From Escherichia virus TH42: a stretch of DNA of 64,000 nt. The DNA lies in the sequence record MT446413.1; one strand, 5' to 3'. The notes beneath the pieces were generated by a model that had not been told where the DNA came from, searched no databases, and worked only from the letters and a program-made list of their open reading frames with translations. The first letter of the stretch is position 1. Every line of letters starts with the position of its first letter. Positions 9,385-39,453 of the stretch are shown in pieces. Made by a program: the position numbers and the translations under genes.

Positions 9385-9909
9385 TTAATTTCTATCAATA
9401 ATTTTCAGAGGTCTATATACAGTCATTACCTCTGGTTCCGAATCACTACCACTTTTTGCAGAGAAAATCATAAGTAGGTGATTTATAAGGGAATTTAGTT
9501 TGTCAATCTTGGCACCTATGAACCAGTCACGGGCACTATTATTGAACACTAAATCACCACAATACATTGGATTGGTATACCACTTTGGCACCCCTTCGCT
9601 CTTACTCTGAAAGTATGTACCGCTATACAAAGGCACATAGCTTTTCTTCAGTGCACGTCTTGCAAGCTGCTCGCTCTCCCTGATTGACTTCTTTGTCAGA
9701 GGATTATCATCACGAATTAGCTTTACATAACGTTTAAAAGGCTTCTCCTTCTTTAATAAGACGGGTATCCACTCGAACTGGTTTCGTTGTTTTATAACCT
9801 GCTCGGCAGTCAGTTTTCGTTGTGACATTCTGTTTATTACGGTATCCGCTACTAATGCTTTGCAAGCGGTTGGCTGATTCCCTGCCTCATAATAAATAGT
9901 CAATGTCAA
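9385..9909 (-). CDS. cell wall hydrolase, SleB/Hydrolase_2-like
   Basis: N-terminal IYYEAGNQPTACKALVADTVINRM...QFEW resembles the SleB-family signature (..YAEAGNE....K.AVA.VI.NR....QF); recalled consensus, not searched. Confidence 0.5.
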   Translation of the reverse strand: MTLTIYYEAGNQPTACKALVADTVINRMSQRKLTAEQVIKQRNQFEWIPVLLKKEKPFKRYVKLIRDDNPLTKKSIRESEQLARRALKKSYVPLYSGTYFQSKSEGVPKWYTNPMYCGDLVFNNSARDWFIGAKIDKLNSLINHLLMIFSAKSGSDSEPEVMTVYRPLKIIDRN

Positions 9910-9961
9910 AAGTAGCTGGGCTGTCGTTATCAGAACTTACTACCCCCTTGTTTTACGGGCA

Positions 9962-9988
9962 TAAAAAAGCCCCATCCGAAGACGGGGC
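9962..9988 (-). terminator. terminator-like hairpin (1 of 3 in tandem)
   Basis: GCCCC...GGGGC stem preceded on plus strand by A6 (U-tract after hairpin in minus sense). Confidence 0.4.
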
Positions 9989-10041
9989 GACCTGAAAAGT
10001 GAACATGACCTCACTCGTTTAAGAACCCTCTCAAAGACTCT

Positions 10042-10066
10042 TAAAAAAGCGGCCTCATTAGAGGCC
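10042..10066 (-). terminator. terminator-like hairpin (2 of 3)
   Basis: GGCCTC-ATTA-GAGGCC with A6 on plus strand. Confidence 0.4.
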
Positions 10067-10146
10067 CGGTCAAATGACCATCCAATAGGGATTGAACCAT
10101 GCCAATGATTCACAAAGGGCTTTCCCTTTAGGCATCACTAGCTACG

Positions 10147-10168
10147 CAAAAAGCCGCACAAAGGCGGC
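10147..10168 (-). terminator. terminator-like hairpin (3 of 3)
   Basis: GCCGC-ACAAAG-GCGGC with A5 on plus strand. Confidence 0.35.
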
Positions 10169-10228
10169 AGGCACAAAGACGCCCTAGAAGAGCGTCATAG
10201 TAGTTGACTACAGGTGTAGAGAAGAGGC

Positions 10229-10672
10229 TTACTTTACTCTCGCTTCCTTGATAGGGTCTATGTATTTTTCGACTCCCCATTTATGCTGACTATCAGCGTA
10301 GAAAACATCCGGTGCACATTGGCTGGTAGTAGGGAAAGCTTTCGGTGGCTTAGTGCTACCTTTATTCTTCTGCTTACCCTTAGTGCGGCCGTTACAATAG
10401 ATTTCTAAACGTTTCTCTTCTTCTGTTTTCGCTGCACCGTTGGTTAACAAGGAACGTTTATGATCAGCAAGAAGAAGTGCATCAGCACGGTGAACACGAC
10501 GCCCTAACACCTTTGCTACGGTAGACGGTTTATGTTCTTGAGCGGCTTGTTTGATAGCTCTACGTTTAAGGCTACGTTTGCTAACGTGGTTAGTAGCGAC
10601 TGGCTTATCTTTTTCCAGTTCACTCATCGAGAACACACGCCCGCCTTTCATGCTGATTTTAGATTTAGCCAT
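10229..10672 (-). CDS. hypothetical basic protein (147 aa)
   Basis: Track ORF, Lys/Arg-rich. Confidence 0.5.
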   Translation of the reverse strand: MAKSKISMKGGRVFSMSELEKDKPVATNHVSKRSLKRRAIKQAAQEHKPSTVAKVLGRRVHRADALLLADHKRSLLTNGAAKTEEEKRLEIYCNGRTKGKQKNKGSTKPPKAFPTTSQCAPDVFYADSQHKWGVEKYIDPIKEARVK

Positions 10673-10742
10673 TGCTTTATTCCTTTCGCTGATAAATTAT
10701 ATCGTGCAAGCCTTACCACATAGCAAGGCTTAACCAAATAAC

Positions 10743-10952
10743 TTAATCAATCAAACTAAACGACTTCCAGCTACGCGTAATTGCTACCCGTTCGCCATCA
10801 AAGAGAACACTTACAGAGATTAGCTTACCGCGACAACTGGATACCGTGGTAATACGTCCGGTTAGTGCCTTACCTTTATTCAGATAGTGATAGCGGACAC
10901 GACGCCCTAGTAGTCGAGTAGCTTTCTTCTCTAATGTGCTTAAGCTGGTCAT
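10743..10952 (-). CDS. hypothetical protein (69 aa)
   Basis: Track ORF on block strand. Confidence 0.45.
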   Translation of the reverse strand: MTSLSTLEKKATRLLGRRVRYHYLNKGKALTGRITTVSSCRGKLISVSVLFDGERVAITRSWKSFSLID

Positions 10953-11173
10953 TAAACAACCTCTTTATATTGGAGTGATCTTACACGACGATACATTACA
11001 GAAGATGCATTAATCGCCGCTTGTTTTCTTTCGTGCTCATGCTGGTTTTTGTGTATCTTATCCATCTCGGCATCATTACGACGACGCTGTAAGATTCTGC
11101 TACACTTGCGATGGTTATTGTTAGCACGTGCTTTCTTACAGATAGGGCACAAGTGAGATTGAGTTAAGATCAT
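10952..11173 (-). CDS. small zinc-finger-like protein (73 aa)
   Basis: CPIC...H..C pattern near N-terminus; basic. Confidence 0.45.
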   Translation of the reverse strand: MILTQSHLCPICKKARANNNHRKCSRILQRRRNDAEMDKIHKNQHEHERKQAAINASSVMYRRVRSLQYKEVV

Positions 11174-11394
11174 TTTCGCAGTCCTAACTTACGAAGGAAT
11201 CGGCCTAGCTTAGTTTCCTGCGTGATAGTGTAAGTAACAGAGTTTTCAATTAATGCTTGTTCTTGAATCGGTGACGGATACCATTCACCGGTAAGGATGC
11301 ATTTACACTCGATTCCATACTTATCGGTTTTACGATAGGTCATGTTGTTTAAGATATTACGATACATCTTAACTTCTGTTTTCAATTTTGGCAT
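11170..11394 (-). CDS. hypothetical protein (74 aa)
   Basis: Track ORF; 4-nt overlap with downstream gene. Confidence 0.45.
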   Translation of the reverse strand: MPKLKTEVKMYRNILNNMTYRKTDKYGIECKCILTGEWYPSPIQEQALIENSVTYTITQETKLGRFLRKLGLRK

Positions 11395-11449
11395 GGTGTT
11401 TATCTCTTTTTAGTTTCTTTGATTAGTACACTGAATCAATGCACTAGTA

Positions 11450-11482
11450 AAAGAAAAGGCGCTACCCTTTCGAATAGCGCCT
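11450..11482 (-). terminator. rho-independent terminator
   Basis: Perfect 8-bp stem AGGCGCTA/TAGCGCCT with A-tract on plus strand; directly downstream of gene 11503..12405. Confidence 0.6.
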
Positions 11483-11502
11483 TATATGTTCTTTATTGTA
11501 GG

Positions 11503-12405
11503 TTATGCAGCTTGTTGGCGTGCTGCCATGATCTCGGCAGCTTTACGCAATACTTCTTCCTCGTCTGCCGCCGCTTTCTCGTTCGCTTTGACAGTAGAAG
11601 CTGTAGAGATACGACCGCGAAGGTTAGACAATTTTTCAGTCATTTCGTTGATCGCTTTTTCCATTTCATCAGCGTATGAGTCCAGCGATTCAAGCTCTTT
11701 AACTGAGGCATTGATCAGATAGTCATCGCTGATAGATACAGTTGATGCGGTTACTTTCTTAAGGAGTGAATCAAAAGTTTTCTTAACTTTGCCTACTTCT
11801 TCACTCAATGCGATAGTGTTATCAGAAGATGCACCGTTGCGCTCGTCTGCCAACAAGGCCGCTTCAATACGGATGGCAGCTAAACGATCAGTTAGAGCGT
11901 AAATATCCTGATTAAAGTTTTCGTTAACCTTCTGGTTAATCTGATTTGCTACCGGAACGTTGTCGTTGCAGCCTTTATAGAAAGCTGGATTATCGACCTG
12001 TACATCTTCACCTTTAGCAAAGCGTTCGAAGGAGTTAGACCAGCGGGCACGGTTTTGCTCCATTTTGGTTTTAACCTGTTCCGGTTTAGCATCTTCTTTC
12101 GCTTTCGCTTCACCTTCCAGATTAATCCATTTCTTTTTACCGTTCGCCCCGTCGCTGTTGTACTTGATAGGAGTGAGGAAAGAGATTGCAACCGCAATCA
12201 CATCTAAATCACGGTAACGCTCAGTCAGTAAGAAATCTACCGCCCCCTGCAATACATCCAGCTTCTTACCGTTAGCACGGAAGTGCTGCAAATGACCTAA
12301 CAGGAAGTTAGAAACATCTTGCTTAATCGCTGCGTTGTTGCTACGGATATTGTTAGCCAGTGCGTTAAAGCCAGATTCGTTAACCAGATTGAAAGATTTA
12401 GCCAT
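11503..12405 (-). CDS. hypothetical protein (300 aa)
   Basis: Long track ORF with own terminator; first gene downstream of the ORF-poor region. Confidence 0.6.
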   Translation of the reverse strand: MAKSFNLVNESGFNALANNIRSNNAAIKQDVSNFLLGHLQHFRANGKKLDVLQGAVDFLLTERYRDLDVIAVAISFLTPIKYNSDGANGKKKWINLEGEAKAKEDAKPEQVKTKMEQNRARWSNSFERFAKGEDVQVDNPAFYKGCNDNVPVANQINQKVNENFNQDIYALTDRLAAIRIEAALLADERNGASSDNTIALSEEVGKVKKTFDSLLKKVTASTVSISDDYLINASVKELESLDSYADEMEKAINEMTEKLSNLRGRISTASTVKANEKAAADEEEVLRKAAEIMAARQQAA

Positions 12406-13224
12406 GATAATTTACCTTTTAATTAAAACGCTCTATGCGCCGCTCTCTATGAGCTATTCAAGTCACAATGACTTAACACTAATCACTAACTATTAGTAAC
12501 CAGTGGTAAATCAGGCGGACTTATCAGGAGTTAACCTTGCCGCCTAACTTTCCATGATGTTTCATCCGGTGGATTCTATTAATCGCTATAAACGAAGCCG
12601 ATTTGCCAGCGATGATTAATCATCATAATAAGGCAGTGTGCCCATCTCTAATTAGCTAACGTTCTAGCCGATGGTAATGCTGTTTACTTTACGTTCGCTC
12701 CGCGATACCCTTTTATATTAACTCTCTAAGCCGACTTATCACCTACTACGGGAAAGTATATGGCAAAGAGTCACTAACCGCCTGATAGATTGGCGTTTGA
12801 TTATCTCTCTCGCGATTTACTACAGTGCATTGTTATGTACTCACATCTTATTGACGTGTTTCAAACAACTTGCTTAGTAAACACTCACACTTAAACCTTA
12901 TTATTAAATAGCAATTTGCTACTCTTTAACCTTCACACCGTCGCTCGCTATTGAGCGTTAATTCGTCGGGATTGACTACCCTGATTAACGTCTATTACCG
13001 TAGCACTTTACTAGCACCGCCGCCGCTACCCTTTAACCGTAGGTGATTAGCTTAAGCCTTGCATGTACTCGATAACTTCGTTTATCAGTGGCATCGTTTC
13101 CAGTAAGGGAATGTAAAGCGGTTTTCTCTGATATTTTAGAGCGCCTTACATCGTTTTATCTGGCATAACTTGCAATGGTTATTATTGCTCGTTATGTTCA
13201 ACCGATATAGGAAGAAGTTTAAAT

Positions 13225-14393
13225 TGTTAAAGAGCGGTAAATCTATCGAAGTGCTTTCTCACTTCCCGCCACCGTTCGCCGTGGTTTCGCGTTTCACTAG
13301 TTGCCTAGTGAGTGCTCATTATGAATCATCCCGTTTAGCGTGTCAACCACTTTTTTTAAATCTTTTTCTCGTCTATTCTTTCGAATGACCAGTTAATCAC
13401 ACATTGGATTAACAAGATTGTAAGCGGTTGCGCTTAACTTTCTGATTCATATTTTTAAAGAGCGGTGCGGTTTTCATGACTCCGCAAACATTTTCATTTT
13501 GAAGTCTACTTATGCACTAACGGGGCGACTACACCCGACCTACACGCTGCACTATGTGCCACCTTTCCCGCGCTACGTCACTTAGGGGAACTGTTTAGCA
13601 AGTTGCCTTGCTTAGTGAACATTCTAACAGAGTGTTTCACCTTGTCAACTCTTTTTATCATCTTCTTTTATTCTATTCCCTTATCTCGCGTGAATCTTTG
13701 CGAAAGGGCAAGATGATAATTTGTTAAAGAGCGTTAAATCTGTCGCCGTCTTCCTCGGCTTCGTGCCTTGAGTGTTCCCACTCCTTCCAGTTTAAGCCTT
13801 TTTACATGATGCTAATCATCTATCTGGAAGTGTTCTGTACTGCTGAGATCACATCTTATCATAGTGATTCGACGTGTCAACAACTATTTTTCGATTAATG
13901 CATCTTGATAAACTAGCGACCATTGAGGCCGCTAACCTACCTTAGTTCATACGTTTAAAGGTTAAATCTTTATCCGTACTTACCAGCGATAACACCGCGA
14001 TAGATTTGCCATTGTCGGCATCAGCTATCATTTCTTTCGCTTGCTGTAACGTGCTACCGACTATTCTCATAATCATGTTAGTAACGTTAATGCTAGTGCA
14101 AGTGATTTGCGTGTCTTTGCTTGAGAAGGTGTAAATGTTCATGGATAAATCCTCATTATGGCATGGTTGGGAGTTTATCAAGATACACTAATCGAATTTT
14201 TAAAGAGCTAGTAAACAAAGTTTGCCTTGAGAGAATCTAGTACACTGTTAAACGCTGATTTCTTTGAAGTATCGACCTTATAGGCCGCCAAATCCACGCA
14301 TGAAAGAGGAATCGACTAGGATAATCAACTAAGTGCCTTATAGTAATGACGCTTGTTAGCACCACTCCTAAGCAAACCTTGTTTTTAAAGAGC
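13225..14393 (+). repeat. array of six same-orientation TTTAAAGAGC-type motifs in an ORF-poor region
   Basis: Copies at 13225-13248, 13454-13465, 13721-13745, 13954-13976, 14197-14208, 14384-14393; two are near-identical 24-25-mers (TTGTTAAAGAGCGGTAAATCTATCG vs TTGTTAAAGAGCGTTAAATCTGTCG). Confidence 0.6.
13942..14181 (-). CDS. hypothetical protein (79 aa), uncertain
   Basis: Only minus-strand track ORF inside the ORF-poor region. Confidence 0.3.
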   Translation of the reverse strand: MINSQPCHNEDLSMNIYTFSSKDTQITCTSINVTNMIMRIVGSTLQQAKEMIADADNGKSIAVLSLVSTDKDLTFKRMN

Positions 14394-14642
14394 AAGGCTA
14401 AAAGTCTAGCCTATCAGGCTTGTTACCGACTGCATAACTAAACCTGAGATTCAAATATAAATCTATCAAGCAAAGAAAGCAATACCTTTTTCTAAAATAA
14501 TTTCACTTTCTTTTAGGTATAGATGAGCACGCGCACGAATAACATCAGGGGAGGAAGAAAACAAGCCTTATAATCGAAAATAAGGCATACAGGAGGCGTT
14601 CTAACGAGCTAAACAGGGGCAAGATGTGCAATCACCTTAGAA

Positions 14643-14670
14643 ATGAAAAAAGCGCCTCAAAAGGGCGCTT
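14643..14670 (-). terminator. rho-independent terminator
   Basis: AGCGCC-loop-GGCGCT with A-tract on plus strand, just downstream of gene 14690..15031. Confidence 0.55.
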
Positions 14671-14689
14671 AGGAAGTCTTACGGGTTGG

Positions 14690-15031
14690 TTACGGATTGG
14701 TGCAAGTGCCGTTACCGGATGATATTTCGTTCATCGACTCATCGAACAACGTCATACTAGACCGCATCATGTGATCAATAGTAATTTGTTTGCCTGTAGC
14801 TTCGTTAACAAGCATCGCATATTTGCTATCAACAACCTTGTTGTCGTAGTCATTCAGGTCAATCAATACTACCTTGCTGGACTTCTTGCCAGTGTCGTAA
14901 TTTTCCATAAGGTAGGTACATTGCAGGCCATCGAGATTAGCCTCATTGAATACGGCAGCATAAGACACGGAAGAAACAGCGAACAAGGCAGCACATACAG
15001 CTAATTTAATTTTCATAATCCAATCCTCCAA
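14690..15031 (-). CDS. putative secreted protein (113 aa)
   Basis: N-terminal signal-peptide-like MKIKLAVCAALFAVSSVSYAA. Confidence 0.5.
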   Translation of the reverse strand: MEDWIMKIKLAVCAALFAVSSVSYAAVFNEANLDGLQCTYLMENYDTGKKSSKVVLIDLNDYDNKVVDSKYAMLVNEATGKQITIDHMMRSSMTLFDESMNEISSGNGTCTNP

Positions 15032-15143
15032 TACGATTGGGGCAATCCTTAAAAAGAACGTGCAACATAAGAAATCATGTCATAGGTAAATAACATGATA
15101 CAGAAAGCAATCAGGCAATGCAAAAAGTATTTATGAATCACCA

Positions 15144-15392
15144 TTAACGATCCTCGACGGTTAACAGTTCTTCCAGTGATAGACCGGATTTAACCAGCAA
15201 ATCACGATATTCGTTAGCATCCATCGGATCAAGGCCGGACAACCGGGCAATAGTCATGCGTGCATGTGCTGAAGACAAGGAAGCCAAAGCACGGATAGGA
15301 ATCAGTACAAGCCCATATTTACCGCTGATAACCAAATCACCATGCTGGATGCACATATGGGAGTTTATTACGGTTGCAAATGATTCGTTCAC
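15144..15392 (-). CDS. hypothetical protein (82 aa)
   Basis: Track ORF on block strand. Confidence 0.45.
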   Translation of the reverse strand: MNESFATVINSHMCIQHGDLVISGKYGLVLIPIRALASLSSAHARMTIARLSGLDPMDANEYRDLLVKSGLSLEELLTVEDR

Positions 15393-16285
15393 TGGATAGC
15401 CTCACAATTAGCAAAGTTAATAAAGGTTGTATAAACTGCTACACCGTCATTGTAAGCAGTGGTAGCGAGTACAGTTTCACTAACATCACCATAGCTAACG
15501 AGATTAGTCACGAACTGTAATTTCTCTTTCTCAACCTTCTGATATAGAGAGTATGTAACCATGTCATGATCACTATCAGCACGCTTTAAATTAATAACCG
15601 ACTGAATGCCTGATTTCTCACTTAACGGGGTAAGAGTGACACGCACATCTTTTACGGTTACAGAGTTAAAATGCACCTTCCAGAATGAATCATTACCATC
15701 ACTGCCAACGTCACGGCAAGCCATATCAGGAGCATTCTTAAACGTGCTAACAAAGGATTGAAGACCTGTAGAAAGAGAGTCTTTTGCCTGCACATTGGTA
15801 GCGATAGCACTAACACTGATAGCTGCAACCAGCGCATAACTTGCAAGGTTGACAGACTTCATAATCTTACTTGCAATAGAAGGCTTACTATCTTTCTTCT
15901 TCTTGTTCTGAACAGCTTCAACCATAGCAGACAAGCGGGATAATACTGCGTTAACATCGCGGCAAGATTCAGGCCAATCATTCTGAGTCCAACTATCTAA
16001 ATTAGCCTGAATGTAACAGTTGATAGCATCTTGCATATCTGTAAAACCATTCTCTTTCATTGACTGCTCATCTTCACACTGTAAGGCGTTCGCAGCGGAA
16101 TCTATGATAAGACAAGCCAGAATGACAGAGTTTTTAAAGCTGGTGCGAGCTTGCTGGTTATCCATCCATTGAGAAGGCACACCAACGGAAAGACCTAACA
16201 GAGAAAGTACATCATTTGCCTGATTCAAGTATTTAATTGCTAACTTTGACATTTCATTAATCCTTTCGGTTGATGTGAACTGCAA
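15389..16285 (-). CDS. hypothetical protein (298 aa)
   Basis: Track ORF; first gene of the minus block next to the divergent region. Confidence 0.55.
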   Translation of the reverse strand: MQFTSTERINEMSKLAIKYLNQANDVLSLLGLSVGVPSQWMDNQQARTSFKNSVILACLIIDSAANALQCEDEQSMKENGFTDMQDAINCYIQANLDSWTQNDWPESCRDVNAVLSRLSAMVEAVQNKKKKDSKPSIASKIMKSVNLASYALVAAISVSAIATNVQAKDSLSTGLQSFVSTFKNAPDMACRDVGSDGNDSFWKVHFNSVTVKDVRVTLTPLSEKSGIQSVINLKRADSDHDMVTYSLYQKVEKEKLQFVTNLVSYGDVSETVLATTAYNDGVAVYTTFINFANCEAIQ

Positions 16286-16443
16286 ACTACAGTCGCAACT
16301 ATATATTAAAGGAAAAACATGTCAACCACTTATTTTCAAACTATTTCATAACTCATTGAATCTAAAAGGAATTTAATTTACTAAACTTTCTTACTCAGAG
16401 GTACAGCTTACTAACAGAATGTTACTTTATAACGCTTATAGAA

Positions 16444-17038
16444 CGGGTAGCAGATCAACGGTAACGACAGATGGGTAGAACGTGCCGCATAGGTTAGCCA
16501 ATGGGTAAGAAGCCTAACGAGGAAGGGGAAACGGGTAGGATATAATGTAAGTTAGTTACAGGTAACAGGTCAGACCATGCGGGAGTTAATTACCAGTCAA
16601 ATAATTTACTCAAACAACAAAAGAAAAAGACCAACAGCACGCTGAAAAAGAAAAAGATTAAAAGAAAGGATTAACATAATCACTTAAGTAAACAATAACC
16701 AGTCTAAACATACATACATCAATAATCCACTCATAAATAATCACATAAGTTATTACATTCAAACTATGGGGAGTGTGTGGGTTGATATAATTGCATGGTG
16801 TTACCATGTGGGTATCATTAATGTTCTTACTATTAATACCGGTTAGTTATAGTCTTCTATTAGTATGCCTGTACAGTACATCAGAGTCTAGCCTTTCATC
16901 CCTTCTCAACATGAGTAAGAGAAATACGGGTAGGAAATCACTGGTTAGATATACATGGGTAGATTCGCATTACTAGATAATGCTCATGGGTAAATAATGC
17001 ATGTCTAATATCAATGGGTAGGGTATTTATGGGTAGGT
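16444..17038 (+). repeat. iteron-like array of (A/C)(T/C)GGGTA(G/A) motifs in the divergent intergenic region
   Basis: Copies at about 16444, 16471, 16501, 16531, 16926, 16956, 16985, 17013, 17029; more ATGGGT(G/T) copies at 17408-17520; no ORF of 60 aa or more across 16290-17230 on the block strands. Confidence 0.55.
16542..16549 (+). promoter_or_regulatory. ATAATGTA motif (candidate phage promoter element)
   Basis: One of seven (T/A)(G/A)TAATGTA occurrences lying in intergenic or gene-end DNA and oriented with downstream genes. Confidence 0.2.
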
Positions 17039-17233
17039 GTGCCACTGAACGCAGATAGGGCAAGGCTTAGAGCTTAAAGGCTGATTGATTTCCTAAAGGC
17101 GATTGCATTCCCTATAACCCTTTTTTAAATGAGGACTCCCCCTTTTACCAAAACACGCTCGGAGGGGCTAGGTCCACTCGGTCAAATCAGAATTTTAAAC
17201 CCTTATATATAACTATATGCCCCAACGTTAGTT

Positions 17234-17425
17234 GTGGATTTAAGAGTGAGGAACAACTTTATGTGGAAATTGAAGATGATTATCAGGCAGATTAAATGTA
17301 ATCACGAGTACTACCCAATCCGGATATCGAGAGGTGATGAACGGTTACATGCTTATTACAAGAGTACATGGAGGTGTGCAGATTGTGGTAAGGTTAAGAA
17401 TAGTAAATGGGTGGATAGGCCTTAA
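17234..17425 (+). CDS. small zinc-ribbon-like protein (63 aa)
   Basis: C..H....C..C pattern; first plus-strand ORF after the divergent region. Confidence 0.4.
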   Translation: MDLRVRNNFMWKLKMIIRQIKCNHEYYPIRISRGDERLHAYYKSTWRCADCGKVKNSKWVDRP

Positions 17426-17547
17426 CATGACATGGCCTTTATGAAGTCCCCTTTACATCAGCGTACATGGGTTCATACATGGGTGGGCCTTTAGATGAGT
17501 AAGCCTTTATGGGTTGATCACTCTCGTTTATCAGAGGAGATATAAAA

Positions 17548-17796
17548 ATGATTCTAGACTTTTTATCAGAGCTGCTTCCTTACTTCCGCACTGAAAGATG
17601 TGCATTTGTATTTGATGAAGGGGAGGAGGTATTGAGTTGTTTGGGTAGATTAGTAGACCTAGATGACGATGAAGATTTTGATGCTACGATGGATATTAGT
17701 TCATTGGGCTGGTTGTACATGAGATGCTTTGTAACCTACAAGGCTGAGACGTTTAAAGACTATCGTTATAACACGGAAGGAGAGAATGATGAATAA
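17548..17796 (+). CDS. hypothetical acidic protein (82 aa)
   Basis: Track ORF with GGAG-type RBS upstream. Confidence 0.45.
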   Translation: MILDFLSELLPYFRTERCAFVFDEGEEVLSCLGRLVDLDDDEDFDATMDISSLGWLYMRCFVTYKAETFKDYRYNTEGENDE

Positions 17797-18442
17797 TATG
17801 ACAGGAACTAATACACTGAATGCAATCTACGAGAACATGGGATGTAAAGGCGAGGTTGTTTACAATGGTAATCTCCGTCCCTTATCAGAGGACACTCTCT
17901 ATCTGAATCGTGTTCATGAAACCACTGGAGGTAAATCCCGAGTTGAGATGGTAAAACAATTGGCTCATGGTTCTGTGTATGGTCATGCTCCTTCAACCCG
18001 TGAACTATGGGAAAGTTTGATTCCTCGTACAGAAGCTAAAGATGTGAAAGATTATTTTACTGTAGCAAAAGAAGTTAAACGCAAGTGTCCATCCAATTTA
18101 GAAGTTGTTCCGTATGTATCTGACAAACATGCACACCTACCGGATTATGCCCGTGAGATGATTGAGATGATAGAAGAAGCTGAGTATGAAGCTCTGAATA
18201 ATTATTTAAATTCGAAAGATCAGTGGTCACGTAATGTAGTAATTGATGAAGAAGGTAATGAAGTAGTTACGTGGGTACATGCTAGTGAACAAGCTCTGGA
18301 CCCCGAGCTTGAAGAATACAAAAAATTTTTGGCGTCCTCTTCTTTTGATGTAGAGAATGACAAATCTGTTCCAGTGACTTGGGAAGGTGAAACTGTAGCT
18401 CTCCAGACTTTGTTCAACCTACACGTAGGTAATGTAGATTAA
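17786..18442 (+). CDS. hypothetical protein (218 aa)
   Basis: Track ORF on block strand. Confidence 0.55.
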   Translation: MMNNMTGTNTLNAIYENMGCKGEVVYNGNLRPLSEDTLYLNRVHETTGGKSRVEMVKQLAHGSVYGHAPSTRELWESLIPRTEAKDVKDYFTVAKEVKRKCPSNLEVVPYVSDKHAHLPDYAREMIEMIEEAEYEALNNYLNSKDQWSRNVVIDEEGNEVVTWVHASEQALDPELEEYKKFLASSSFDVENDKSVPVTWEGETVALQTLFNLHVGNVD

Positions 18443-18507
18443 TAAAAGGTGTTGCCTCCTCTAGTGGGAGGCTTTTTGTTATAACGATAATGTAGAAGGA
18501 GTATAAG

Positions 18508-18975
18508 ATGTTTGGAGAAAAAGGAGAACTCACGCCTGCACAGGTAGCTGAGGTTACAGGAAGATTACCCGGTGTAACTGATGAATTGGAAAACCGTGGT
18601 ATGGAGCCAAGCACAGGGAAGTTCCAAAAGGGAAATAAGTTCGGACGACCCAAAGGTAGTAGAGGTAAGTTGACACAGCTCATGTTGGACCGAGTTGCTT
18701 CAAGTCATCTGTCCCCTGATGAAGTGTTGATTCAAATTTATGAAGATCCAAATATTCCACCTGATCTTAGATTCAAGGCTGCAAGTAAAGTTGCAGATCT
18801 GGTATATCCGAAGGCAGCTTCTGTTGAGATTAAGATTGAGGAAGAGAATGTAATTAATGAAGATTCATTGAACGCACAAATCAAGGACTTCTTGGCTGGA
18901 GCATTAGGTGCAGATGTGCTACCTCCAGAGGACTCTGAGGACGCTGAAAAGGAGGAGGAAGCGGACGAGAGTTAA
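18508..18975 (+). CDS. putative terminase small subunit (155 aa)
   Basis: Position directly upstream of large terminase, size, acidic C-terminus; call rests on synteny only. Confidence 0.4.
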   Translation: MFGEKGELTPAQVAEVTGRLPGVTDELENRGMEPSTGKFQKGNKFGRPKGSRGKLTQLMLDRVASSHLSPDEVLIQIYEDPNIPPDLRFKAASKVADLVYPKAASVEIKIEEENVINEDSLNAQIKDFLAGALGADVLPPEDSEDAEKEEEADES

Positions 18976-19041
18976 TAGGAATAAAGGGGAGGGTTCTTTT
19001 CGCGAGGGATCTCTCCCTTTTCTATTTTAATTGGAGGAAAC

Positions 19042-31983: not shown

Positions 31984-32202
31984 ATGAAATTAATGAAACA
32001 AATCACATATGGACTGGCTTGCTTAGGTACCGGTTTTGTAGTATCTACAGCAATCCCTGTTAGTGCTGTCAGCTCCCATTCAGTTATTGAAGCTCCAGTA
32101 GAAAAACTTAGCGCTGAATGTAAGCAAAGAACTATCCAGAATAATCTCGTAGTTATTTGTCCAGATGCCCAATCTTCAGCGTTGAGAAAAGTTCTACCTT
32201 GA
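31984..32202 (+). CDS. small membrane protein, holin candidate (72 aa)
   Basis: Strong RBS, one hydrophobic segment, immediately upstream of lysozyme gene. Confidence 0.35.
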   Translation: MKLMKQITYGLACLGTGFVVSTAIPVSAVSSHSVIEAPVEKLSAECKQRTIQNNLVVICPDAQSSALRKVLP

Positions 32203-32230: not shown

Positions 32231-32722
32231 ATGGACGCTATCGCATTGCCACCTGTACAGCATAATTTAAGTCCTGAGGGTTTGGAGTTCATTATGAAGC
32301 ATGAAGGTATGAGAACCCGTGCTTATCAAGACTCCGCTGGCATATGGACTATATGTGTCGGAGCAACGCGCGATATGAATGGGTATCCAGTCAGAAAAGG
32401 ATTAACGTATTCTATAGAGGATTGTTTGATATTACTAGATCGTGACACTCAAGACTCTGTTCGTGCTACTCAGAAAAATATAAGGGTTCCTTTGTTTACT
32501 AATGAGTTTGATGCTTTAACCTCTTTCAACTTTAATGTTGGTGGTACAGCTCTCGCTACTTCTAAACTAAGGAAAGTGATCAACGGAGATGTTAGAGGTG
32601 ATGTTTACTCTGAGTTTTTGCGTTGGGATAAAATAACAGTCAGAGGTGTAAAACAACAGAGTCCGGGACTTCACAACCGAAGGGTTGCAGAAGCAGACCT
32701 ATACACCACAGGTAAATACTAA
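32231..32722 (+). CDS. lysozyme (GH24, T4-lysozyme-like)
   Basis: HEGMRTRAYQDSAGIWTICVGAT matches the E...D...T catalytic-region pattern of lambda R / T4 e-type lysozymes. Confidence 0.8.
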   Translation: MDAIALPPVQHNLSPEGLEFIMKHEGMRTRAYQDSAGIWTICVGATRDMNGYPVRKGLTYSIEDCLILLDRDTQDSVRATQKNIRVPLFTNEFDALTSFNFNVGGTALATSKLRKVINGDVRGDVYSEFLRWDKITVRGVKQQSPGLHNRRVAEADLYTTGKY

Positions 32723-32734
32723 TGGAGGTGCCTT

Positions 32735-33538
32735 TTGGCTATTGAAACTACAGCGGTAGTAACTACCGATTTAAACCCCCTGTACCCTCGTGACAGGGAT
32801 TATATTTATGAAGGGGCGGCTCAACTCCGCCTTATCAAACAAGTCTTGATTAACACATTCCCTAACATCACTGAACCAGTGAACCTTTCTTCTGAATCCT
32901 TTAAGGCTTTGTCAGAGAAAATCACTTTTACTGGTGATGCTATGGATGTTGGTAATCTGATGATTAAAAACCTGACTCCGGGCACTGGTGATAAAGATGC
33001 TGTAACCAAAGGTCAGATGGAAGCTTTCATGTTGAATTGGATGCAGAATAAACTATATCGTATTGGTGCTTACTACATCACTGAAGAAGATATTAACCCC
33101 GGTGATTCTAGCTCTCTCGGCTTTGGCTCTTGGGCTAAAGTTACTGGTGTTGTTATGGGTACTGGTGTTGTCAACCCCGATGGGTCTGTTCCTAACGCCC
33201 AACGTGTTGAGTTCCAAGCAGGCGGTACAGGTGGTCGTGTGTTTAATACAGTTCGTACTGAGAATATGCCTCTAACTACAATCAATGGTTCTAGTTTCCA
33301 AGTTAGCTCCTACTCTCACGCACACAACATTACGATGGGCCGAGGGGATGCTAGTGGTCATAACAGCAGCCCTAACTGGTATAGTCCGGGTGGTGGTTAT
33401 ACTCAAGTAACTGACACAAACACTCACTCACACTCAATCTCAGGTTCTGTTAGTTTTGGTTATGATGACATTTCTCGTCAACCTATCAACACATTACCGC
33501 CATTCCGAGCAGCACATATTTGGAGACGTATTAGCTAA
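32735..33538 (+). CDS. putative tail protein (267 aa)
   Basis: TTG start 6 nt after GGAGG; located in tail module. Confidence 0.45.
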   Translation: MAIETTAVVTTDLNPLYPRDRDYIYEGAAQLRLIKQVLINTFPNITEPVNLSSESFKALSEKITFTGDAMDVGNLMIKNLTPGTGDKDAVTKGQMEAFMLNWMQNKLYRIGAYYITEEDINPGDSSSLGFGSWAKVTGVVMGTGVVNPDGSVPNAQRVEFQAGGTGGRVFNTVRTENMPLTTINGSSFQVSSYSHAHNITMGRGDASGHNSSPNWYSPGGGYTQVTDTNTHSHSISGSVSFGYDDISRQPINTLPPFRAAHIWRRIS

Positions 33539-33547
33539 GGAGGTAGC

Positions 33548-36500
33548 ATGGCTCTCTATCCAATTAAATCACTAGGCGCAGTTGGGGTTATCGCTGACCA
33601 AGCACCTACTGACTTAGCACCAAATGCTTTCACTAACGCTATTAATGCTCGGTTTGTTGAGCAGAGGGTCTTTAAGACGGGGGGCAATGCCCCTCTTTCT
33701 TATGTAGACGAAGATAAAGATCTGACTCCTCTCTCATTCCTTTCAATGCCTTTCGACTATTATAGCGCAGGTAATAGCTTTCTTGTGGTAGGTACAGATA
33801 AGAAACTGTATAAACTTACCGACGAGAGTTTAACTGATATCAGCCGTAAGGTTGCTACAGCGACAAAGAAAGCATCAGCGACAATTAAGATTTATCCAGT
33901 AGTCTCAAATATTGTTCCTAAAGAGACTTCTGTATCTATGAATTTTAACCAGACCAAGATTCTCGAAGTTGAAGTCACCCCTACAGATGCTCAAAATGCT
34001 AATCTAGTTTGGGAAGTAAGCAACTCTTCTTACGGCAGTATTGAAGTTGACCCTACTGACTCCAAGAAGGCTACCCTAACTTCTAAGTCTGTTGAAGGTA
34101 ATTTAGTTGTGACAGTGAGCACATCTGATGAATCTATCTCAGCTCAGATTGCAGTTAATATCATTGATGGTGATTCAGGTATCTATTTGAGCCAAGACAC
34201 TTTGACTATGCGTAAAGGTGGTACATCAACCCTTACAGCAATTACAGGCAAACCGTCTGTAACTTGGTCTTCCTCTAACCCATCGTTAGTTTCTGTTTCT
34301 CCTAATGCTAATACAAAGACAGTTGTTCTTACAGCTCTTGGAGAAGGACAGGTAACTATAACTGCTGATAATGAGACAAAGACTGCATCTTGTATAGTAA
34401 CAGCAATACCTCAAATTGATAGCATCACATTAAGTCAGACAGATATTCAAATGAGCCGTGGTACTCAGTACATCCTAACTGCAACAGTTAGTCCAGCTAA
34501 CGCACCCAACCAAACAATCACTTGGACTTCTTCTAATACCAACATTGCTACAGTAAGTGGTACAGGTACAGAAGCTACAATAACTGGATTGCTTGCAGGG
34601 TATACAGAGATTACAGCAGTTACAGCGGAAGGAGGTCGTTCAGCAGTTTGTACTGTACGTGTTGATTTATCTTCTCGTCTGGCAAGTAGGGCTATGTCAG
34701 CAATGACTATCACTACAGAAGCTCCTGTAGAAGAACCAATGGTTGGCTCAGAAGAGGTAACATACTTCGACACTGATAACATTGGTATTGATACGACAGG
34801 AATGGCAGAAGGGAATAACTTCTACGACTACTCTAACGTCATGGACTTGGAAGGTTTTGGTAGAGCAGCAATGCTTGCTAATGATCCACCTTTGACTGGA
34901 GTTACTCTTGATGTTATTGATGCCTCTCTTGATGTAGGTGAAGAGATTGTTATCACAGCTACAGCATCTCCTACTGGAAGCTATACTTACAAGTGGACAG
35001 TTGATAAGAGTGGTTATGTTTCTACTACTTCTACAACTGACTCAACTTTGAAACTTACTGCTATTCGTAAGGGTGAGGTTAAAGTGACTTGTACTGTAAG
35101 CCAGATGGTTCAGAAAGACTATGATGCGTTTGAAGATTATCCTTGGTATCATGCGATCATCTCTAACTGTGCAGTAGCAACTACTCACTACGAAACTCCT
35201 CAGGTTAAGGAATTCGATTCTGAATACTTCACTGATCTTCCGGGATGGGGTGAGCAGACGGTTGTTGATGCAGATGGTAATCCTTCTGTTAAGAAGTATA
35301 ACTGGAAATGTGAACGAGTGAGAGCTTTTAACAATAGACTGTTTGCTCTGAATATGAGAGAGTCTAATGCCTCTGGTGTTACTACTCACTACCCTCTTCG
35401 TTTGCGTTGGTCTAACTTTGCAGAGGAAAACAAAGCCCCTCAGCTTTGGGATGATTATGCATATGACCGAGCAGTGAGTTCTGACCTAGCAGCTAACATC
35501 GTAGGACAGACAGAAGCTCTTGAGAATGGTTATGCAGGATATATTGATTTGGCTGACTCTAATGGTAGTTTGTTAGATGTTCTTCCTCTGAAAGATTATC
35601 TGTTCGTTTACACTGAGTTTGAAACTTATATCGGCTCTCCTACCAACAACACCTATCAGCCTTTGATGTTTAAAAAGCTGTTTAACGATTCAGGAATACT
35701 TGCTCCTGAGTGTGTGGTGGAAGTTGAAGGTGGTCACTTTGTGGTAACTCAGAACGACGTCATTCTACACAATGGTGCTTCTAAGAAATCTATTGCTTCT
35801 AACCGAGTGAAGAACATGCTCATTAATGAGATTTGTCTGGTGAACCCAATTGCTACACGAGTTCATCTTCATCAGGATAAGAAAGAAGTATGGGTTCTTT
35901 ATGTAGGTCCGGGTGAGCCTAAGGAAAGTTTTGCCTGTACTAAAGCAGCAGTATGGAATTATGAGTTCGACACTTGGTCTTTCCGTACGATTCCTTATTC
36001 TTATTGTATCGGTCTTGTTGATCCTCCGGTTCTGGAACGCGGTCCTATCTGGGCTGATTTCCAAGAGATCACTTGGGATGACCCTTCGATTGACAAACTG
36101 GTGTGGAGAAAAGATGCAACTAACTTCCGTCAGCGAGTTACAATCATAGGTTCTTTCTTGAAAGGATTCTACCAAGTTGATATAGGAGCTTTGGATTATA
36201 TCTATGACAGAACAAACGATGTGGTTATAGAGAAGCCTCTGGAAATGAGACTAGAGAGAACGGGGATTGATTTTGATAACGTCACTAATGAATGGAATCA
36301 GAAACACATTAACCGATTTAGACCTCAAGTAACAGGAACGGGGACTTATACTTTTGAAGCAGGTGGTAGTCAATTCTCTAATGAGTATGGACACAACCAC
36401 TCTACTAAAGAGTTTAGGGTTGGTGTGGATCGTCACGTAGCAGTCAGACTGAACCATCCATACCTATTCTATAATGTTATAGATAATGATGTTAACAGTA

Positions 36501-36553
36501 ATGCGTCTATGAATGGTTTAACCATAGAGTTTGCTGTTGGCGGTCGAAGATAA
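33548..36553 (+). CDS. large tail/structural protein with Ig-like repeats (1001 aa)
   Basis: Several Thr/Ser/Val-rich beta-strand repeats in N-terminal third; own terminator. Confidence 0.6.
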   Translation: MALYPIKSLGAVGVIADQAPTDLAPNAFTNAINARFVEQRVFKTGGNAPLSYVDEDKDLTPLSFLSMPFDYYSAGNSFLVVGTDKKLYKLTDESLTDISRKVATATKKASATIKIYPVVSNIVPKETSVSMNFNQTKILEVEVTPTDAQNANLVWEVSNSSYGSIEVDPTDSKKATLTSKSVEGNLVVTVSTSDESISAQIAVNIIDGDSGIYLSQDTLTMRKGGTSTLTAITGKPSVTWSSSNPSLVSVSPNANTKTVVLTALGEGQVTITADNETKTASCIVTAIPQIDSITLSQTDIQMSRGTQYILTATVSPANAPNQTITWTSSNTNIATVSGTGTEATITGLLAGYTEITAVTAEGGRSAVCTVRVDLSSRLASRAMSAMTITTEAPVEEPMVGSEEVTYFDTDNIGIDTTGMAEGNNFYDYSNVMDLEGFGRAAMLANDPPLTGVTLDVIDASLDVGEEIVITATASPTGSYTYKWTVDKSGYVSTTSTTDSTLKLTAIRKGEVKVTCTVSQMVQKDYDAFEDYPWYHAIISNCAVATTHYETPQVKEFDSEYFTDLPGWGEQTVVDADGNPSVKKYNWKCERVRAFNNRLFALNMRESNASGVTTHYPLRLRWSNFAEENKAPQLWDDYAYDRAVSSDLAANIVGQTEALENGYAGYIDLADSNGSLLDVLPLKDYLFVYTEFETYIGSPTNNTYQPLMFKKLFNDSGILAPECVVEVEGGHFVVTQNDVILHNGASKKSIASNRVKNMLINEICLVNPIATRVHLHQDKKEVWVLYVGPGEPKESFACTKAAVWNYEFDTWSFRTIPYSYCIGLVDPPVLERGPIWADFQEITWDDPSIDKLVWRKDATNFRQRVTIIGSFLKGFYQVDIGALDYIYDRTNDVVIEKPLEMRLERTGIDFDNVTNEWNQKHINRFRPQVTGTGTYTFEAGGSQFSNEYGHNHSTKEFRVGVDRHVAVRLNHPYLFYNVIDNDVNSNASMNGLTIEFAVGGRR

Positions 36554-36559
36554 CAACTA

Positions 36560-36580
36560 GGGAGCTTCGGCTCCCTTTTA
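36560..36580 (+). terminator. rho-independent terminator
   Basis: GGGAGC-TTCG-GCTCCC followed by TTTTATTGTTT. Confidence 0.7.
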
Positions 36581-36590
36581 TTGTTTATAA

Positions 36591-37613
36591 TTGGAGGTAC
36601 TTATGGGTGCTGGAGGTTTTCGTAAGAATACTGGAAGAAACAACACCACACTTCCCTACAACGTTGGGTTTTTAAACAATGTAGAGGATACGGATAAATA
36701 TAACGTTGCAGTTTATGATGAATTGCAGAAAGTCAGTACAGCAACTAACCAGATGTTCCAAGCAATCGACGAGATTCATGAAGAAATAGATGTTCGTATT
36801 AAAGCTCTTAATGCAATGAACCTACAGTTTGATGAACTTGAGAACCGAATTACTACAGAGATTGAAACAGCTATTGCTGATATTCAAACACAGATGGGTA
36901 ATCTTTCTACTGAAGACATTTGGGATAGAAGCACTAACCCTCCGACTAAACTGGATGGTACAGTTGCAGGTTTCAAAACTTCTATTGAAGGTAATGATTT
37001 AAAGATTCAGACAGTACAAGGTATTGTGAATGAACAAGGACAAGAGATTGCTTTAGTTCAGACAGAACTTACTGCTCAAGGTACTCAGATTGCTGAAGTG
37101 GATGGTAAGGTTACTACTGTACAGAATTCTCTTTCTCAATACATGAGACTAGATAGTTACGAAGCTACATGGGGTGTCAACTCTTCTATTAATGGTCAGT
37201 ACGCTGGTGTTAAACTAACTAACAACGGCACGAACAGCCAATTCCAAGTAACGGCTAATAAATTTATTGTTGGTGATGGCAACTCTGGTAATACTCCTTT
37301 TGTTTTTGAAGGTGGTAGAGCTAGAATGGAATTCGCTGATATCAAGAATGTCAACATTACAACTGCTCAGATTGCTAATGCTCGAATCCAATTTGCTCAG
37401 ATTGATAACGTATGGATTCAAGATGGACAGATTGCTAACCTTACTGCTAACAAGATTACTGCTGGCTCTATGAGTGGTTCAAACTGGAGACTTACTGTTG
37501 GCGGGGATTTTGTGATGGGTGGTACAGGCGGTTCTCAGTTGTGGATGAACGGTAATAGAATAGATTTTTATGATGGGAGTGGAACTCTTCGTATAAGAAT
37601 AGGGAGTTGGTAA
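36591..37613 (+). CDS. putative tail fibre-like protein (340 aa)
   Basis: Short repeats (QIANARIQFAQIDNVWIQDGQIANL) typical of fibre shafts. Confidence 0.5.
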   Translation: MEVLMGAGGFRKNTGRNNTTLPYNVGFLNNVEDTDKYNVAVYDELQKVSTATNQMFQAIDEIHEEIDVRIKALNAMNLQFDELENRITTEIETAIADIQTQMGNLSTEDIWDRSTNPPTKLDGTVAGFKTSIEGNDLKIQTVQGIVNEQGQEIALVQTELTAQGTQIAEVDGKVTTVQNSLSQYMRLDSYEATWGVNSSINGQYAGVKLTNNGTNSQFQVTANKFIVGDGNSGNTPFVFEGGRARMEFADIKNVNITTAQIANARIQFAQIDNVWIQDGQIANLTANKITAGSMSGSNWRLTVGGDFVMGGTGGSQLWMNGNRIDFYDGSGTLRIRIGSW

Positions 37614-37614
37614 T

Positions 37615-38649
37615 ATGGCATATGGAATATGGACAAGCCCTGTTGGTCCGGGTCCGGCGGCACCTGCTGATATTTACATCGATAGTGGTAGCACGTTTCC
37701 TCAACTCAAGAATAGAGTTAGCGGTAACTTTGCATTTAGTGGAAACATTTGTGACCTCCCTATAAACGGGTGGGATGGAAGTGGTCAAATAGTTATTGTC
37801 CCAACAGGCTCTGTGGTATGGGAAAGATACATACCGCCTAATGTGACCTCGGACGTATACTGGATAGACAACATCTCAGTTATTAATAACTCTACTTTTC
37901 GAGTTACTATGGATTATAATGTTAATGGGTGGGTATTTGATATGGCTTTTAATGTGTATCAGATATGGCCTAGAGCTAATAGAAACTACGGAATTACTTT
38001 TTCTAACACAGCTGATTACTTCTCTATTTCTGACTCTGGCACTGTTGGTCAGTGTATCTGGGCTTGGGAAGGTGACATAAACGGCTCTCTTCAGATACCA
38101 GATATTGGAGGTTTTGATATGAGCCGGGCAACTGTTTATGCAAACTGGAGTCACGGAGGGGCGGGGTTGTTGTATAACCCATCTAACAGGGTTGTTTATG
38201 TGTACCAAAACAGGTCTCACGATAACAGTAACACAAACCAAACAGGATCTATTGGTGGTGTTAGGATTGCTGTTTTCTGCGATGGTTCTGGGGTACCAAC
38301 CCACAACGGTGGCCTAAACATCTTTTCCCCAAATGGGTCTCAGTGCGTATTCTCTACCTATAGAACCCCTTTTAGTGTTGAAGGGTTTATGCCTATGAGT
38401 GGAGGTAATACATCTCTGGCCTATCCAATGATACCACTGTCTTATGGGGCTGGGGCTATACGAGGAAGTGCTAGTGGTTGGTACTTTCAACACACAAGAT
38501 CTCATATGATGAATGGATCTTCTTTTGGGACAGGGTATGGAAGAATGATATACTCTTGGTCAAATCAGTATGATCTCGGTGGTGGGGGTGCTCTAGGATT
38601 AAGTATTCCGGTATTAGACGCCAAGAAGATTTTTAGAAGCATACAATAA
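37615..38649 (+). CDS. virion structural protein (344 aa)
   Basis: Start overlaps preceding stop; module position. Confidence 0.5.
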   Translation: MAYGIWTSPVGPGPAAPADIYIDSGSTFPQLKNRVSGNFAFSGNICDLPINGWDGSGQIVIVPTGSVVWERYIPPNVTSDVYWIDNISVINNSTFRVTMDYNVNGWVFDMAFNVYQIWPRANRNYGITFSNTADYFSISDSGTVGQCIWAWEGDINGSLQIPDIGGFDMSRATVYANWSHGGAGLLYNPSNRVVYVYQNRSHDNSNTNQTGSIGGVRIAVFCDGSGVPTHNGGLNIFSPNGSQCVFSTYRTPFSVEGFMPMSGGNTSLAYPMIPLSYGAGAIRGSASGWYFQHTRSHMMNGSSFGTGYGRMIYSWSNQYDLGGGGALGLSIPVLDAKKIFRSIQ

Positions 38650-38658
38650 GGAGAGGAT

Positions 38659-39453
38659 ATGGATAGGATTTTAGGAGTTTCAGAACTAGATCCACTGGTT
38701 CAACAAGCTGCTAAGAAGTATGGTATTCCTGCTGCTCTTGTTCATGCGGTCATTCAGAGGGAGTCTAGTGGTAAGCCCTCTGCCGCTTCAGGAACAGGGC
38801 CAGTAGGATTGATGCAGATTAGTAAAGGTTTGGCTAAAGATTATGGTTACAAATTAGAAGATCGTCTAGACCCAGCTAAGAATATCGACATGGGTGCTAG
38901 ATATATCAGGGACAACCTAAAAGCGTTTAATGGTGATGTAAGAAAGGCAATGGTAGGTTATTCAGAAGGGACTGGTGGAGCAAAACAAATGTTCGCTGGT
39001 AAGAGAGGGTTTACACCTCAAGCTCTCGATTCTATGAATAATAAAAACTTCCTCCCTTTCTATACAGCCAATGATGCTGCTGGTCAGGTAGCTAATCCGG
39101 TTGGGGCTTTACAGTCAGCACAGCCAGTGAACCAGTTCTCTCCTGAATTGGTTACTAAAGAAGGTGCTGCTAATTCCCCTACTCAAGCTGAGATTGCTGC
39201 TGCTAAGACAGGTGCTCTAGGTGGTTCTCCTGCTGAGTTCTATTCCGATGCTGTAGCAGAGACTGGGGAAGATCAGAAACCACAACAGAACTTCGGTAAT
39301 GCTGCACTAGCTGCTGCTGCGATGTTAGCAGGGAAGGCTCCTAAGTCTCAAACAGTTCAGAGAGCACATGCACCAACTCAAGCAGGTTCTCAATACAGCC
39401 CACAGACACAAGCCGTTCTTAGACGTTTGGCAAGTGTTGGTGTTATTAAATAA
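38659..39453 (+). CDS. lytic transglycosylase domain protein (putative internal virion protein)
   Basis: QRESSGKPSAASGTGPVGLMQI matches the SLT catalytic motif (E-S....A.S..GA.GLMQ). Confidence 0.7.
   Translation: MDRILGVSELDPLVQQAAKKYGIPAALVHAVIQRESSGKPSAASGTGPVGLMQISKGLAKDYGYKLEDRLDPAKNIDMGARYIRDNLKAFNGDVRKAMVGYSEGTGGAKQMFAGKRGFTPQALDSMNNKNFLPFYTANDAAGQVANPVGALQSAQPVNQFSPELVTKEGAANSPTQAEIAAAKTGALGGSPAEFYSDAVAETGEDQKPQQNFGNAALAAAAMLAGKAPKSQTVQRAHAPTQAGSQYSPQTQAVLRRLASVGVIK

Follow-up and report, generated by a model that had tools for sequence, protein, structure and literature searches.

The 64,000-nucleotide stretch of Escherichia virus TH42 DNA analysed here (sequence record MT446413.1; hereafter the window) carries three genes whose predicted products would each cut peptidoglycan: a SleB/CwlJ-like hydrolase of the Hydrolase_2 family, a GH24 lysozyme and a protein with an SLT lytic transglycosylase domain. 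An earlier note on this DNA had singled out three open reading frames with three different peptidoglycan-degrading folds, and all three are found at the positions it gave, each scoring above its Pfam curated cut-off (Table 1). We are mainly concerned with the SleB-like gene, which is strongly constrained in two phage families that have different main endolysins and is kept apart from the lysis cassette.

Since the region from 8800 to 10800, in which this gene lies, shares 97.7% DNA identity with Escherichia phage StefiGeyer_Bas88 (Bas88), 97.4% with TH43 and 96.3% with TH34, 89-94% with SU7, EK010 and ECBP2, and ~80% with the Kuravirus phages 4E8, EP335 and KBNP1711 (TH34 is 95.9% identical over the first 25 kb of the window), the window is by DNA identity that of a phiEco32-like podovirus of the C3 morphotype, subfamily Gordonclarkvirinae. 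Its minus-strand genes occupy ~1-17 kb and 48-64 kb, and a plus-strand structural block lies at 17.8-47.6 kb.

Table 1 Features of the TH42 window discussed in the text (window coordinates).
Feature	Position	Strand	Basis
Conserved SleB/CwlJ-like (Hydrolase_2) coding region, 136 codons	9526..9933	-	ortholog of phi32_117 and SU10 CDS116
Isolate-specific read-through tail	9385..9525	-	alignment with SU7 and Bas88; stop in 13/13 relatives
Shine-Dalgarno-like GGGGG, 9 nt upstream of CTG 9933	9943..9947	-	direct sequence reading
Three tandem intrinsic-terminator-like hairpins (10168-10153, 10066-10051, 9988-9969)	9969..10168	-	terminator scan
147-residue early gene, last gene before the hairpins	10229..10672	-	phrog_11641; homolog of SU10 CDS117 and phi32_120
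Predicted holin, 72 residues, directly upstream of the lysozyme	31984..32202	+	phrog_11161 'holin', 133 bits, full length
GH24 (T4/P22-type) lysozyme	32231..32722	+	PF00959 Phage_lysozyme, 106.3 bits, full-length profile match
Internal virion protein, 264 residues, N-terminal SLT lytic transglycosylase domain	38659..39453	+	PF01464, 87.8 bits; phrog_12507, 531 bits
Four genes after the SLT gene, likely ejection/internal-protein module	39466..47628	+	phrog_4287 twice, phrog_12130, phrog_14629

The SleB-like protein is a bare Hydrolase_2 domain under purifying selection

The open reading frame that had been read as SleB-like, 9385-9909, matched Hydrolase_2 (PF07486) in a hidden Markov model search, covering profile positions 2-85 of 100 at 30.9 bits (E 4.5e-7), where the cut-off is 27. 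When the protein and its relatives were combined into a profile, this matched the SleB structures 4FET and 4F55 (E 1e-14), and a fold match to the SleB catalytic domain agrees with it. This family profile was needed to make the link, a single-sequence phmmer search of the hydrolase against the PDB having returned no match. PF07486 is carried by all 135 retrieved homologues bar two truncated forms.

Glu16 (GAG, 9888-9886) aligns with the first Glu of the SleB motif VYGESRGE and is invariant in every alignment that we made; its counterpart is E151 in B. anthracis SleB (E157 in B. cereus), which we take to be the catalytic glutamate. The SleB glutamate is essential (PMC12331253). The YxEAGNQ, NR and QF(S/E)W motifs around this residue are strictly kept, and an alignment of 18 family members has Y14, E16, A17, G18, R35, Q52, A91, P116 and F130 invariant, with F53 and W118 at least 90% conserved. 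Two family-conserved positions are replaced throughout the Kuravirus-like clade, which has C24 and L128 in place of G24, just beyond the EAGNQ motif, and H128, in the C-terminal G-x-H-x-F hairpin, residues that are kept in SleB, GAP52, Privateer and 120 other family members.

Over the 136 codons, the ratio of nonsynonymous to synonymous substitution rates (dN/dS) is 0.06 against phiEco32 (dS 1.1), again 0.06 against 4E8, and ~0.17-0.19 against the 136-residue relative L010, dS being saturated against the distant metagenomic relative L008. So low a dN/dS against phiEco32, together with the retained catalytic Glu, marks the SleB-like gene as being under strong purifying selection and not as a relic.

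The protein consists of the catalytic domain and nothing else, 136 residues that include neither a signal peptide nor a membrane anchor nor a signal-arrest-release (SAR) segment. A SAR or signal-anchor reading of its hydrophobic N-terminus, LITTAQLLLTLTIYY, was rejected, this stretch having only ~13 residues; in the structural model it is helix 1 of the fold, and it aligns with the helix that precedes the catalytic Glu in SleB. Of the features that mark an endolysin, either late expression with holin linkage or an export signal of its own, the SleB-like gene has neither: it lies ~22 kb from the holin gene, on the opposite strand, within a cluster whose assignment as early draws on its position and on the phiEco32 and SU10 literature.

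Stop loss in the TH42 isolate and a probable CTG start

The 3' end at 9385, from the frame as first read, is not a conserved gene end. Codon 137 is TGG (9525-9523) in the window and is followed by 45 codons up to TAA at 9387-9385, which gives a tail of 46 residues, whereas a stop (TGA, TAA or TAG) stands at 9525-9523 in all 13 relatives checked, namely SU7, Bas88, TH43, TH34, ECBP2, 4E8, WFI101126, KBNP1711, phiEco32 and four metagenomic contigs. By this alignment the tail arises from a TGA>TGG stop loss that is specific to the TH42 isolate. Differences among close relatives along the tail stretch are almost all nonsynonymous, phiEco32 has in-frame stops there, and the comparison identifies 9385-9525 as ancestrally intergenic. 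The long form was found on one contig only (77,284 bp) in a collection of 15 billion proteins, and in 1 of the 40 proteins examined from a 90% identity cluster of 48 members; among those listed for this cluster, 13 of 15 are 101 residues long.

At the other end, TTG 9909 is probably not the start codon, since it aligns with an internal Leu codon in relatives of 136 residues (65-71% identity), which begin 8 codons further upstream, at a TTG four bases after AGGAGGT. The codon at this ancestral start is CTG (9933-9931) in the window and in all Kuravirus-like relatives. A Shine-Dalgarno sequence is retained 9 nt 5' of it, as AGGAGG in phiEco32, TH43 and TH34 and as GGGGG in the window, and the amino acids encoded by the eight codons from CTG to TTG 9909 are kept despite 2-3.5 synonymous changes. 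On this pattern, CTG 9933-9931 is probably the start of the SleB-like gene, and it is also the start that the Bas88 annotators picked. In phi32_117 of phiEco32 there is an additional ATG 8 codons into the gene.

Most public models in Suseptimavirus and Kuravirus start instead at an internal ATG (9827-9829, 'MSQRKL...') and give a product of 101 residues. Across the 27 codons upstream of this ATG, which include the catalytic Glu, the comparison with phiEco32 gives 7 synonymous changes and no nonsynonymous one, and because divergence here is only synonymous the 101-residue form is not the whole product. By omitting the catalytic glutamate, these database models keep annotation pipelines from recognising the domain. 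The corrected boundaries of the gene and the stop loss specific to this isolate are useful products of this analysis.

In the intergenic DNA 3' of the hydrolase gene (9404-9506, minus strand), two motifs are shared with phiEco32 despite diverged surroundings, both of them probably regulatory. The first, 'TTGACAAACTAAATTCC(C/T)TTATAAA', includes a -35-like box, with a spacer shorter than a standard sigma-70 promoter needs; the second is an inverted repeat around 'GGTAATG..TGTATATAGACC'. The TH42 read-through tail is translated across both.

The gene is shared by two phage families with different main endolysins

At an identity of at least 80%, the SleB-like gene is present in ~98 phage records. 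Its orthologues, among them phi32_117, SU10 CDS116 and the proteins of phages Paul and ShigP1 (phrog_12974), are 86-99% identical in amino-acid sequence and of equal length, have CTG at the ancestral start, and lie between like neighbours, a 147-residue gene upstream and a small phrog_12154 gene downstream; the window gene is unlike all of them in having TGG for the stop and the 46-residue tail. They are labelled 'cell wall hydrolase' in Paul and ShigP1 and 'Cell wall hydrolase SleB domain-containing' in UniRef.

Beyond the subfamily, the protein is 32-34% identical to the 140-residue Hydrolase_2 'endolysins' of GAP52, Privateer, SE131 and other Grimontviridae, with further homologues, also annotated as endolysin, in 7-11-like and Aeromonas phages. 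The Grimontviridae proteins (GAP52 gp091, Privateer gp098 and those of 7-11 and SE131) are likewise a bare domain of ~140 residues with no signal and with the motif E-A-G-(N/G)-(Q/E), and their gene likewise lies in a non-structural region, far from other lysis genes. It differs from that of the window in its conventional start and ribosome-binding site, in its tight operon without upstream terminators, and in keeping G24 and H128.

The accompanying enzymes also differ, since Grimontviridae pair Hydrolase_2 with an M15 peptidase and not with GH24 plus SLT. GAP52 has the M15 peptidase GAP52_046 (L094 37320-37712), in the middle-gene region, and Hydrolase_2, both annotated 'putative endolysin', and a search of the first 40 kb of GAP52 gave no match to GH24 or SLT; conversely, no homologue of the GAP52 M15 gene was found within the window. 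The holin-GH24 pair is missing from Grimontviridae phages (PMC4281155, PMC7881722), and Privateer has an 'endolysin endopeptidase' (PMC7881722). With this enzyme and GAP52_046 present, Hydrolase_2 as the sole endolysin of the Grimontviridae was rejected. Since the two families have different main endolysins and the SleB-like gene in common, this gene is a shared, older element, shown by these alignments to be old, vertically inherited and held in common with the sister family Grimontviridae. Its location, earlier described as unusual for a lysis or entry enzyme, is conserved away from the lysis genes across both families and is therefore a trait of the lineage rather than an oddity of the TH42 genome.

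Tandem terminator-like hairpins lie upstream of the SleB-like gene

The earlier note had the SleB-like gene followed by three tandem terminator hairpins. The hairpins exist, but their placement rested on a strand error: gene and hairpins are both on the minus strand, so that the hairpins lie downstream of the 147-residue gene and upstream of the Hydrolase_2 gene. As read from their positions, they end the preceding operon of four small early genes. The terminator scan found 4 sites in 1.8 kb, with 1.5 expected. Other genomes have comparable arrangements, the SU7 annotation having one terminator in the same spacer and 4E8 and WFI101126 two each, and tandem terminators recur after the homologous 148-residue gene both in L008 and in phiEco32. 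The SU7 annotation also has a promoter and a terminator at the window equivalents of 11402-11434 and 11440-11487, and our scan recovers that terminator.

From the terminators to the hydrolase gene, scanning for sigma-70 promoters gave no site, and the phiEco32 gp36 middle/late promoter consensus, TAATGTATA, does not occur upstream of the hydrolase; its total in the window is at chance level (21 against 20.5 expected). Because of the three upstream terminators and the apparent non-AUG (CUG) start, we infer that the SleB-like protein is made in small amounts.

The 290-nt spacer itself (9940-10228, minus strand) is highly structured, with a minimum free energy of -120.6 kcal/mol, an RNA fold z-score of -3.95 and at least seven hairpins, three of which are terminator-like. 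Searches of the spacer against Rfam (E<=1) and with ARAGORN gave no RNA family and no tRNA, and 'GGTTCAATCCC', which looks like a tRNA T-loop, was rejected as a tRNA remnant on these results. The spacer may be a source of small RNAs or serve as a graded 'valve' on transcription. Small open reading frames annotated within it by the Bas88 authors are probably spurious; their frame is not kept among close relatives, owing to a 1-nt indel. In phiEco32 (L005 590-1387), two inserted genes, phi32_119 ('tail protein') and the tiny phi32_118, separate the hydrolase gene from the tandem terminators, where the lineage of the window has the hairpin spacer only; a predicted terminator (L005 655-674) falls inside the annotated phi32_119 coding sequence.

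A predicted holin-lysozyme pair and an SLT protein of a likely ejection module

The GH24 gene, which lies within the late structural module, begins 28 nt after the end of the holin gene and thus shows the linkage between endolysin and holin. Its product has the motif E25-x8-D34-x5-T40 and an N-terminus with no hydrophobic stretch or membrane anchor, and its nearest solved relatives are the phage endolysins 8APP and 7M5I (E 1e-25 to 1e-27) and P22 lysozyme. A holin is annotated at the upstream gene in Bas88, ECBP2, EK010 and SU7, and the holin-GH24 region is present in 96 phage records. The holin and endolysin pair of this phage group has been described (PMC9965538, PMC4281155, PMC7881722), and two-component spanins have been catalogued for phiEco32 and ECBP2 (PMC6139136). 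The holin and GH24 genes are likely to form the lysis cassette, with GH24 as the canonical endolysin. In contrast to the common holins with two or three transmembrane domains, the predicted holin apparently has a single hydrophobic segment (~residues 9-28), rich in Gly, Ala, Ser and Thr, and after it a tail of 45 residues that contains two cysteines.

The SLT protein has the motifs E35-S36 ('QRESSG') and 'GLMQI' and a low-complexity C-terminal half, and its SLT domain is similar to residues 10-135, the N-terminal domain, of T7 gp16 (E 1.8e-9). The module after it comprises two 'DNA ejection' paralogues (39466-40515 and 40527-41498), a 543-residue protein and a 1472-residue protein. Since both paralogues match phrog_4287 over nearly their full length, they point to a tandem duplication; the first is very rich in Gln, Asn, Ser and Gly. 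In SU10 particles the SLT homologue gp20 was detected with 39.6% coverage, as were all of gp21-gp24, and neither the SleB-like CDS116 nor the GH24 protein CDS15 was detected (PMC4281155). By analogy with SU10, whose homologue provides the particle evidence, the SLT protein is likely to be an internal virion protein used at entry.

Elsewhere in the genome, a tRNA-Arg is annotated in Bas86, Bas87 and Bas88 within the region that aligns to window positions 1-19041, and an ARAGORN search of the whole window found no tRNA; the tRNA-Arg gene of these relatives may lie in a segment that is missing from the TH42 genome.

Three enzymes, probably with three separate jobs

We favour the explanation, at a probability of about 0.6, that the three peptidoglycan-cleaving enzymes have three separate jobs, with GH24 acting in lysis, the SLT protein at entry, and the SleB-like protein as an accessory muralytic enzyme. 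GH24, as a soluble endolysin, would reach the wall once the holin opens the inner membrane and, together with the spanins, would bring about lysis. The SLT protein would be ejected with its neighbouring ejection proteins and, like the N-terminal domain of T7 gp16, would cut the wall open locally as the DNA enters. The SleB-like protein would be a soluble accessory endolysin that cleaves glycan strands; it is its arrival at the wall only after the holin has fired and the membrane has been breached that suggests an accessory role. Its output would be held low by its dependence on transcription that reads through the terminators and on a CUG start. In this scheme, drawn from domain content and gene context, it probably assists in cutting the wall and is expressed weakly. 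Its fold, its constraint, the conserved Glu and the gene context are shown; its timing, start codon, activity and role are inferred.

Several observations weigh against this assignment. The replacement of G24 by Cys and of H128 by Leu could mean that catalysis is altered or lost. The 101-residue models place the start codon elsewhere and so leave out the catalytic Glu and half of the domain. The complete holin-GH24-spanin set makes a second soluble enzyme seem redundant, and yet the gene is tightly conserved, which fits a distinct function at least as well as it fits accessory lysis.

The main rival to an accessory endolysin is a non-lytic function early in infection, either as a moonlighting protein in the manner of T7 gp3.5 or by acting on, or binding to, cytoplasmic muropeptides or wall precursors, inside the cell or in regulation. 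Such a role would account for the conservation of the gene away from the lysis genes in two families with different main endolysins. An early or host-takeover location far from the holin is conserved in Gordonclarkvirinae, in the 136-residue metagenomic relatives and in Grimontviridae; the gene is kept, at dN/dS values of 0.06-0.2, although its partner endolysin switches between GH24 and M15; the protein has no export signal; and the family-invariant G24 and H128 are replaced clade-wide. Set against this, the strict retention of the catalytic Glu and of the motifs around it argues for catalysis on glycan strands, and signal-bearing homologues in Vequintavirinae are toxic and implicated in lysis (PMC7344957). 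We regard an early role as unlikely on balance, though it is the alternative to be taken most seriously. A more specific form of it, slightly less likely still, would make the SleB-like protein an early-infection factor of the C3 podoviruses (Gordonclarkvirinae and Grimontviridae), cytoplasmic or regulatory in its action, whose output is deliberately kept very low by a tandem-terminator 'valve' and the CUG start.

The same replacements, H128L and G24C, which are specific to this clade and alter residues that SleB and every other member examined have kept, would also fit a protein that has kept the fold and lost catalysis, and that serves as a peptidoglycan- or glycan-binding module, for instance in modulating host lytic transglycosylases or wall recycling. 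This seems doubtful to us, since what we believe to be the single catalytic residue of the family (SleB E151/E157) is invariant, and we are aware of nothing to indicate a catalytic role for the replaced His.

Decay of the gene, as the silenced remnant of an endolysin of the ancestor made redundant when the holin-GH24 pair was acquired, might be read from the CTG in place of a start codon in all Kuravirus-like genomes, the three upstream terminators with no promoter detected, the stop codon lost in the TH42 isolate, and the failure to detect the protein in the SU10 proteome. The substitution pattern contradicts decay, with dN/dS at 0.06-0.14 across the subfamily at dS up to 1.1 and with the purely synonymous change around the catalytic Glu (7 against 0); in addition, frame and length are intact in all 13 relatives, the Shine-Dalgarno sequence is kept at the correct distance from CTG, and the stop loss is limited to one genome. 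We consider decay improbable on these sequence comparisons. Finally, a second wall-degrading enzyme packaged in the virion for entry is conceivable for GAP52, whose structural module has no recognisable SLT and might use an alternative, but it is highly improbable here, as SU10 particles yielded the SLT protein and 16 further late proteins but not the SleB-like protein, which moreover goes unmentioned in the account of the ten Privateer virion proteins and is encoded in the early region on the strand opposite to the structural genes.

Comparison with known systems

Compared with the spore-cortex lytic enzymes SleB and CwlJ of Bacillus (4FET, 4F55), the accessory muralytic enzyme that we favour is only ~15% identical, has no N-terminal peptidoglycan-binding domain and no signal peptide, and has Leu for H128; E. 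coli, moreover, is without the muramic-lactam-containing substrate of SleB and CwlJ. Most homologues from environmental phages (IMG/VR) have 160-200 residues with an N-terminal signal or anchor, which the versions of C3 podoviruses do not have. Vequintavirinae, Certrevirus and Phapecoctavirus are phages of Enterobacteria in which PF07486 also occurs beside another lysin, and their SleB-like proteins (CB7_83, CR3_087, LNA4 and the second lysin of iGC_PHA_EC001) likewise have an N-terminal signal or anchor, with 160-190 residues; those of Certrevirus stand beside a holin candidate, whereas the window protein is signal-less and isolated. Expression of the Vequintavirinae proteins with a signal was toxic, and these were implicated in lysis (PMC7344957), while the combination of GH24 and Hydrolase_2 has been published for Phapecoctavirus (PMC10793346) and LNA4 (PMC12031403). 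Closest in arrangement to the separation seen here, in 7-11-like Salmonella phages described in 2024 an M15 endolysin adjoins the holin and an 'endolysin' with a SleB domain lies far away (PMC11180984).

The SLT protein resembles T7 gp16 in its SLT domain and in lying within a block of ejection proteins; it differs in being a separate protein of 264 residues, the T7 domain heading one of 1318. T7 also encodes a wall hydrolase among its early or middle genes, the gp3.5 lysozyme, which binds T7 RNA polymerase; its amidase fold is unrelated to SleB.

An endolysin together with a virion-associated lytic transglycosylase is standard phage equipment. The earlier note had considered the presence of three folds in one phage worth remarking on; essentially all genomes of the Gordonclarkvirinae carry these three genes, and because the combination is conserved throughout the group and has already been annotated or published in relatives, such a set of three wall-degrading folds is known and ordinary.

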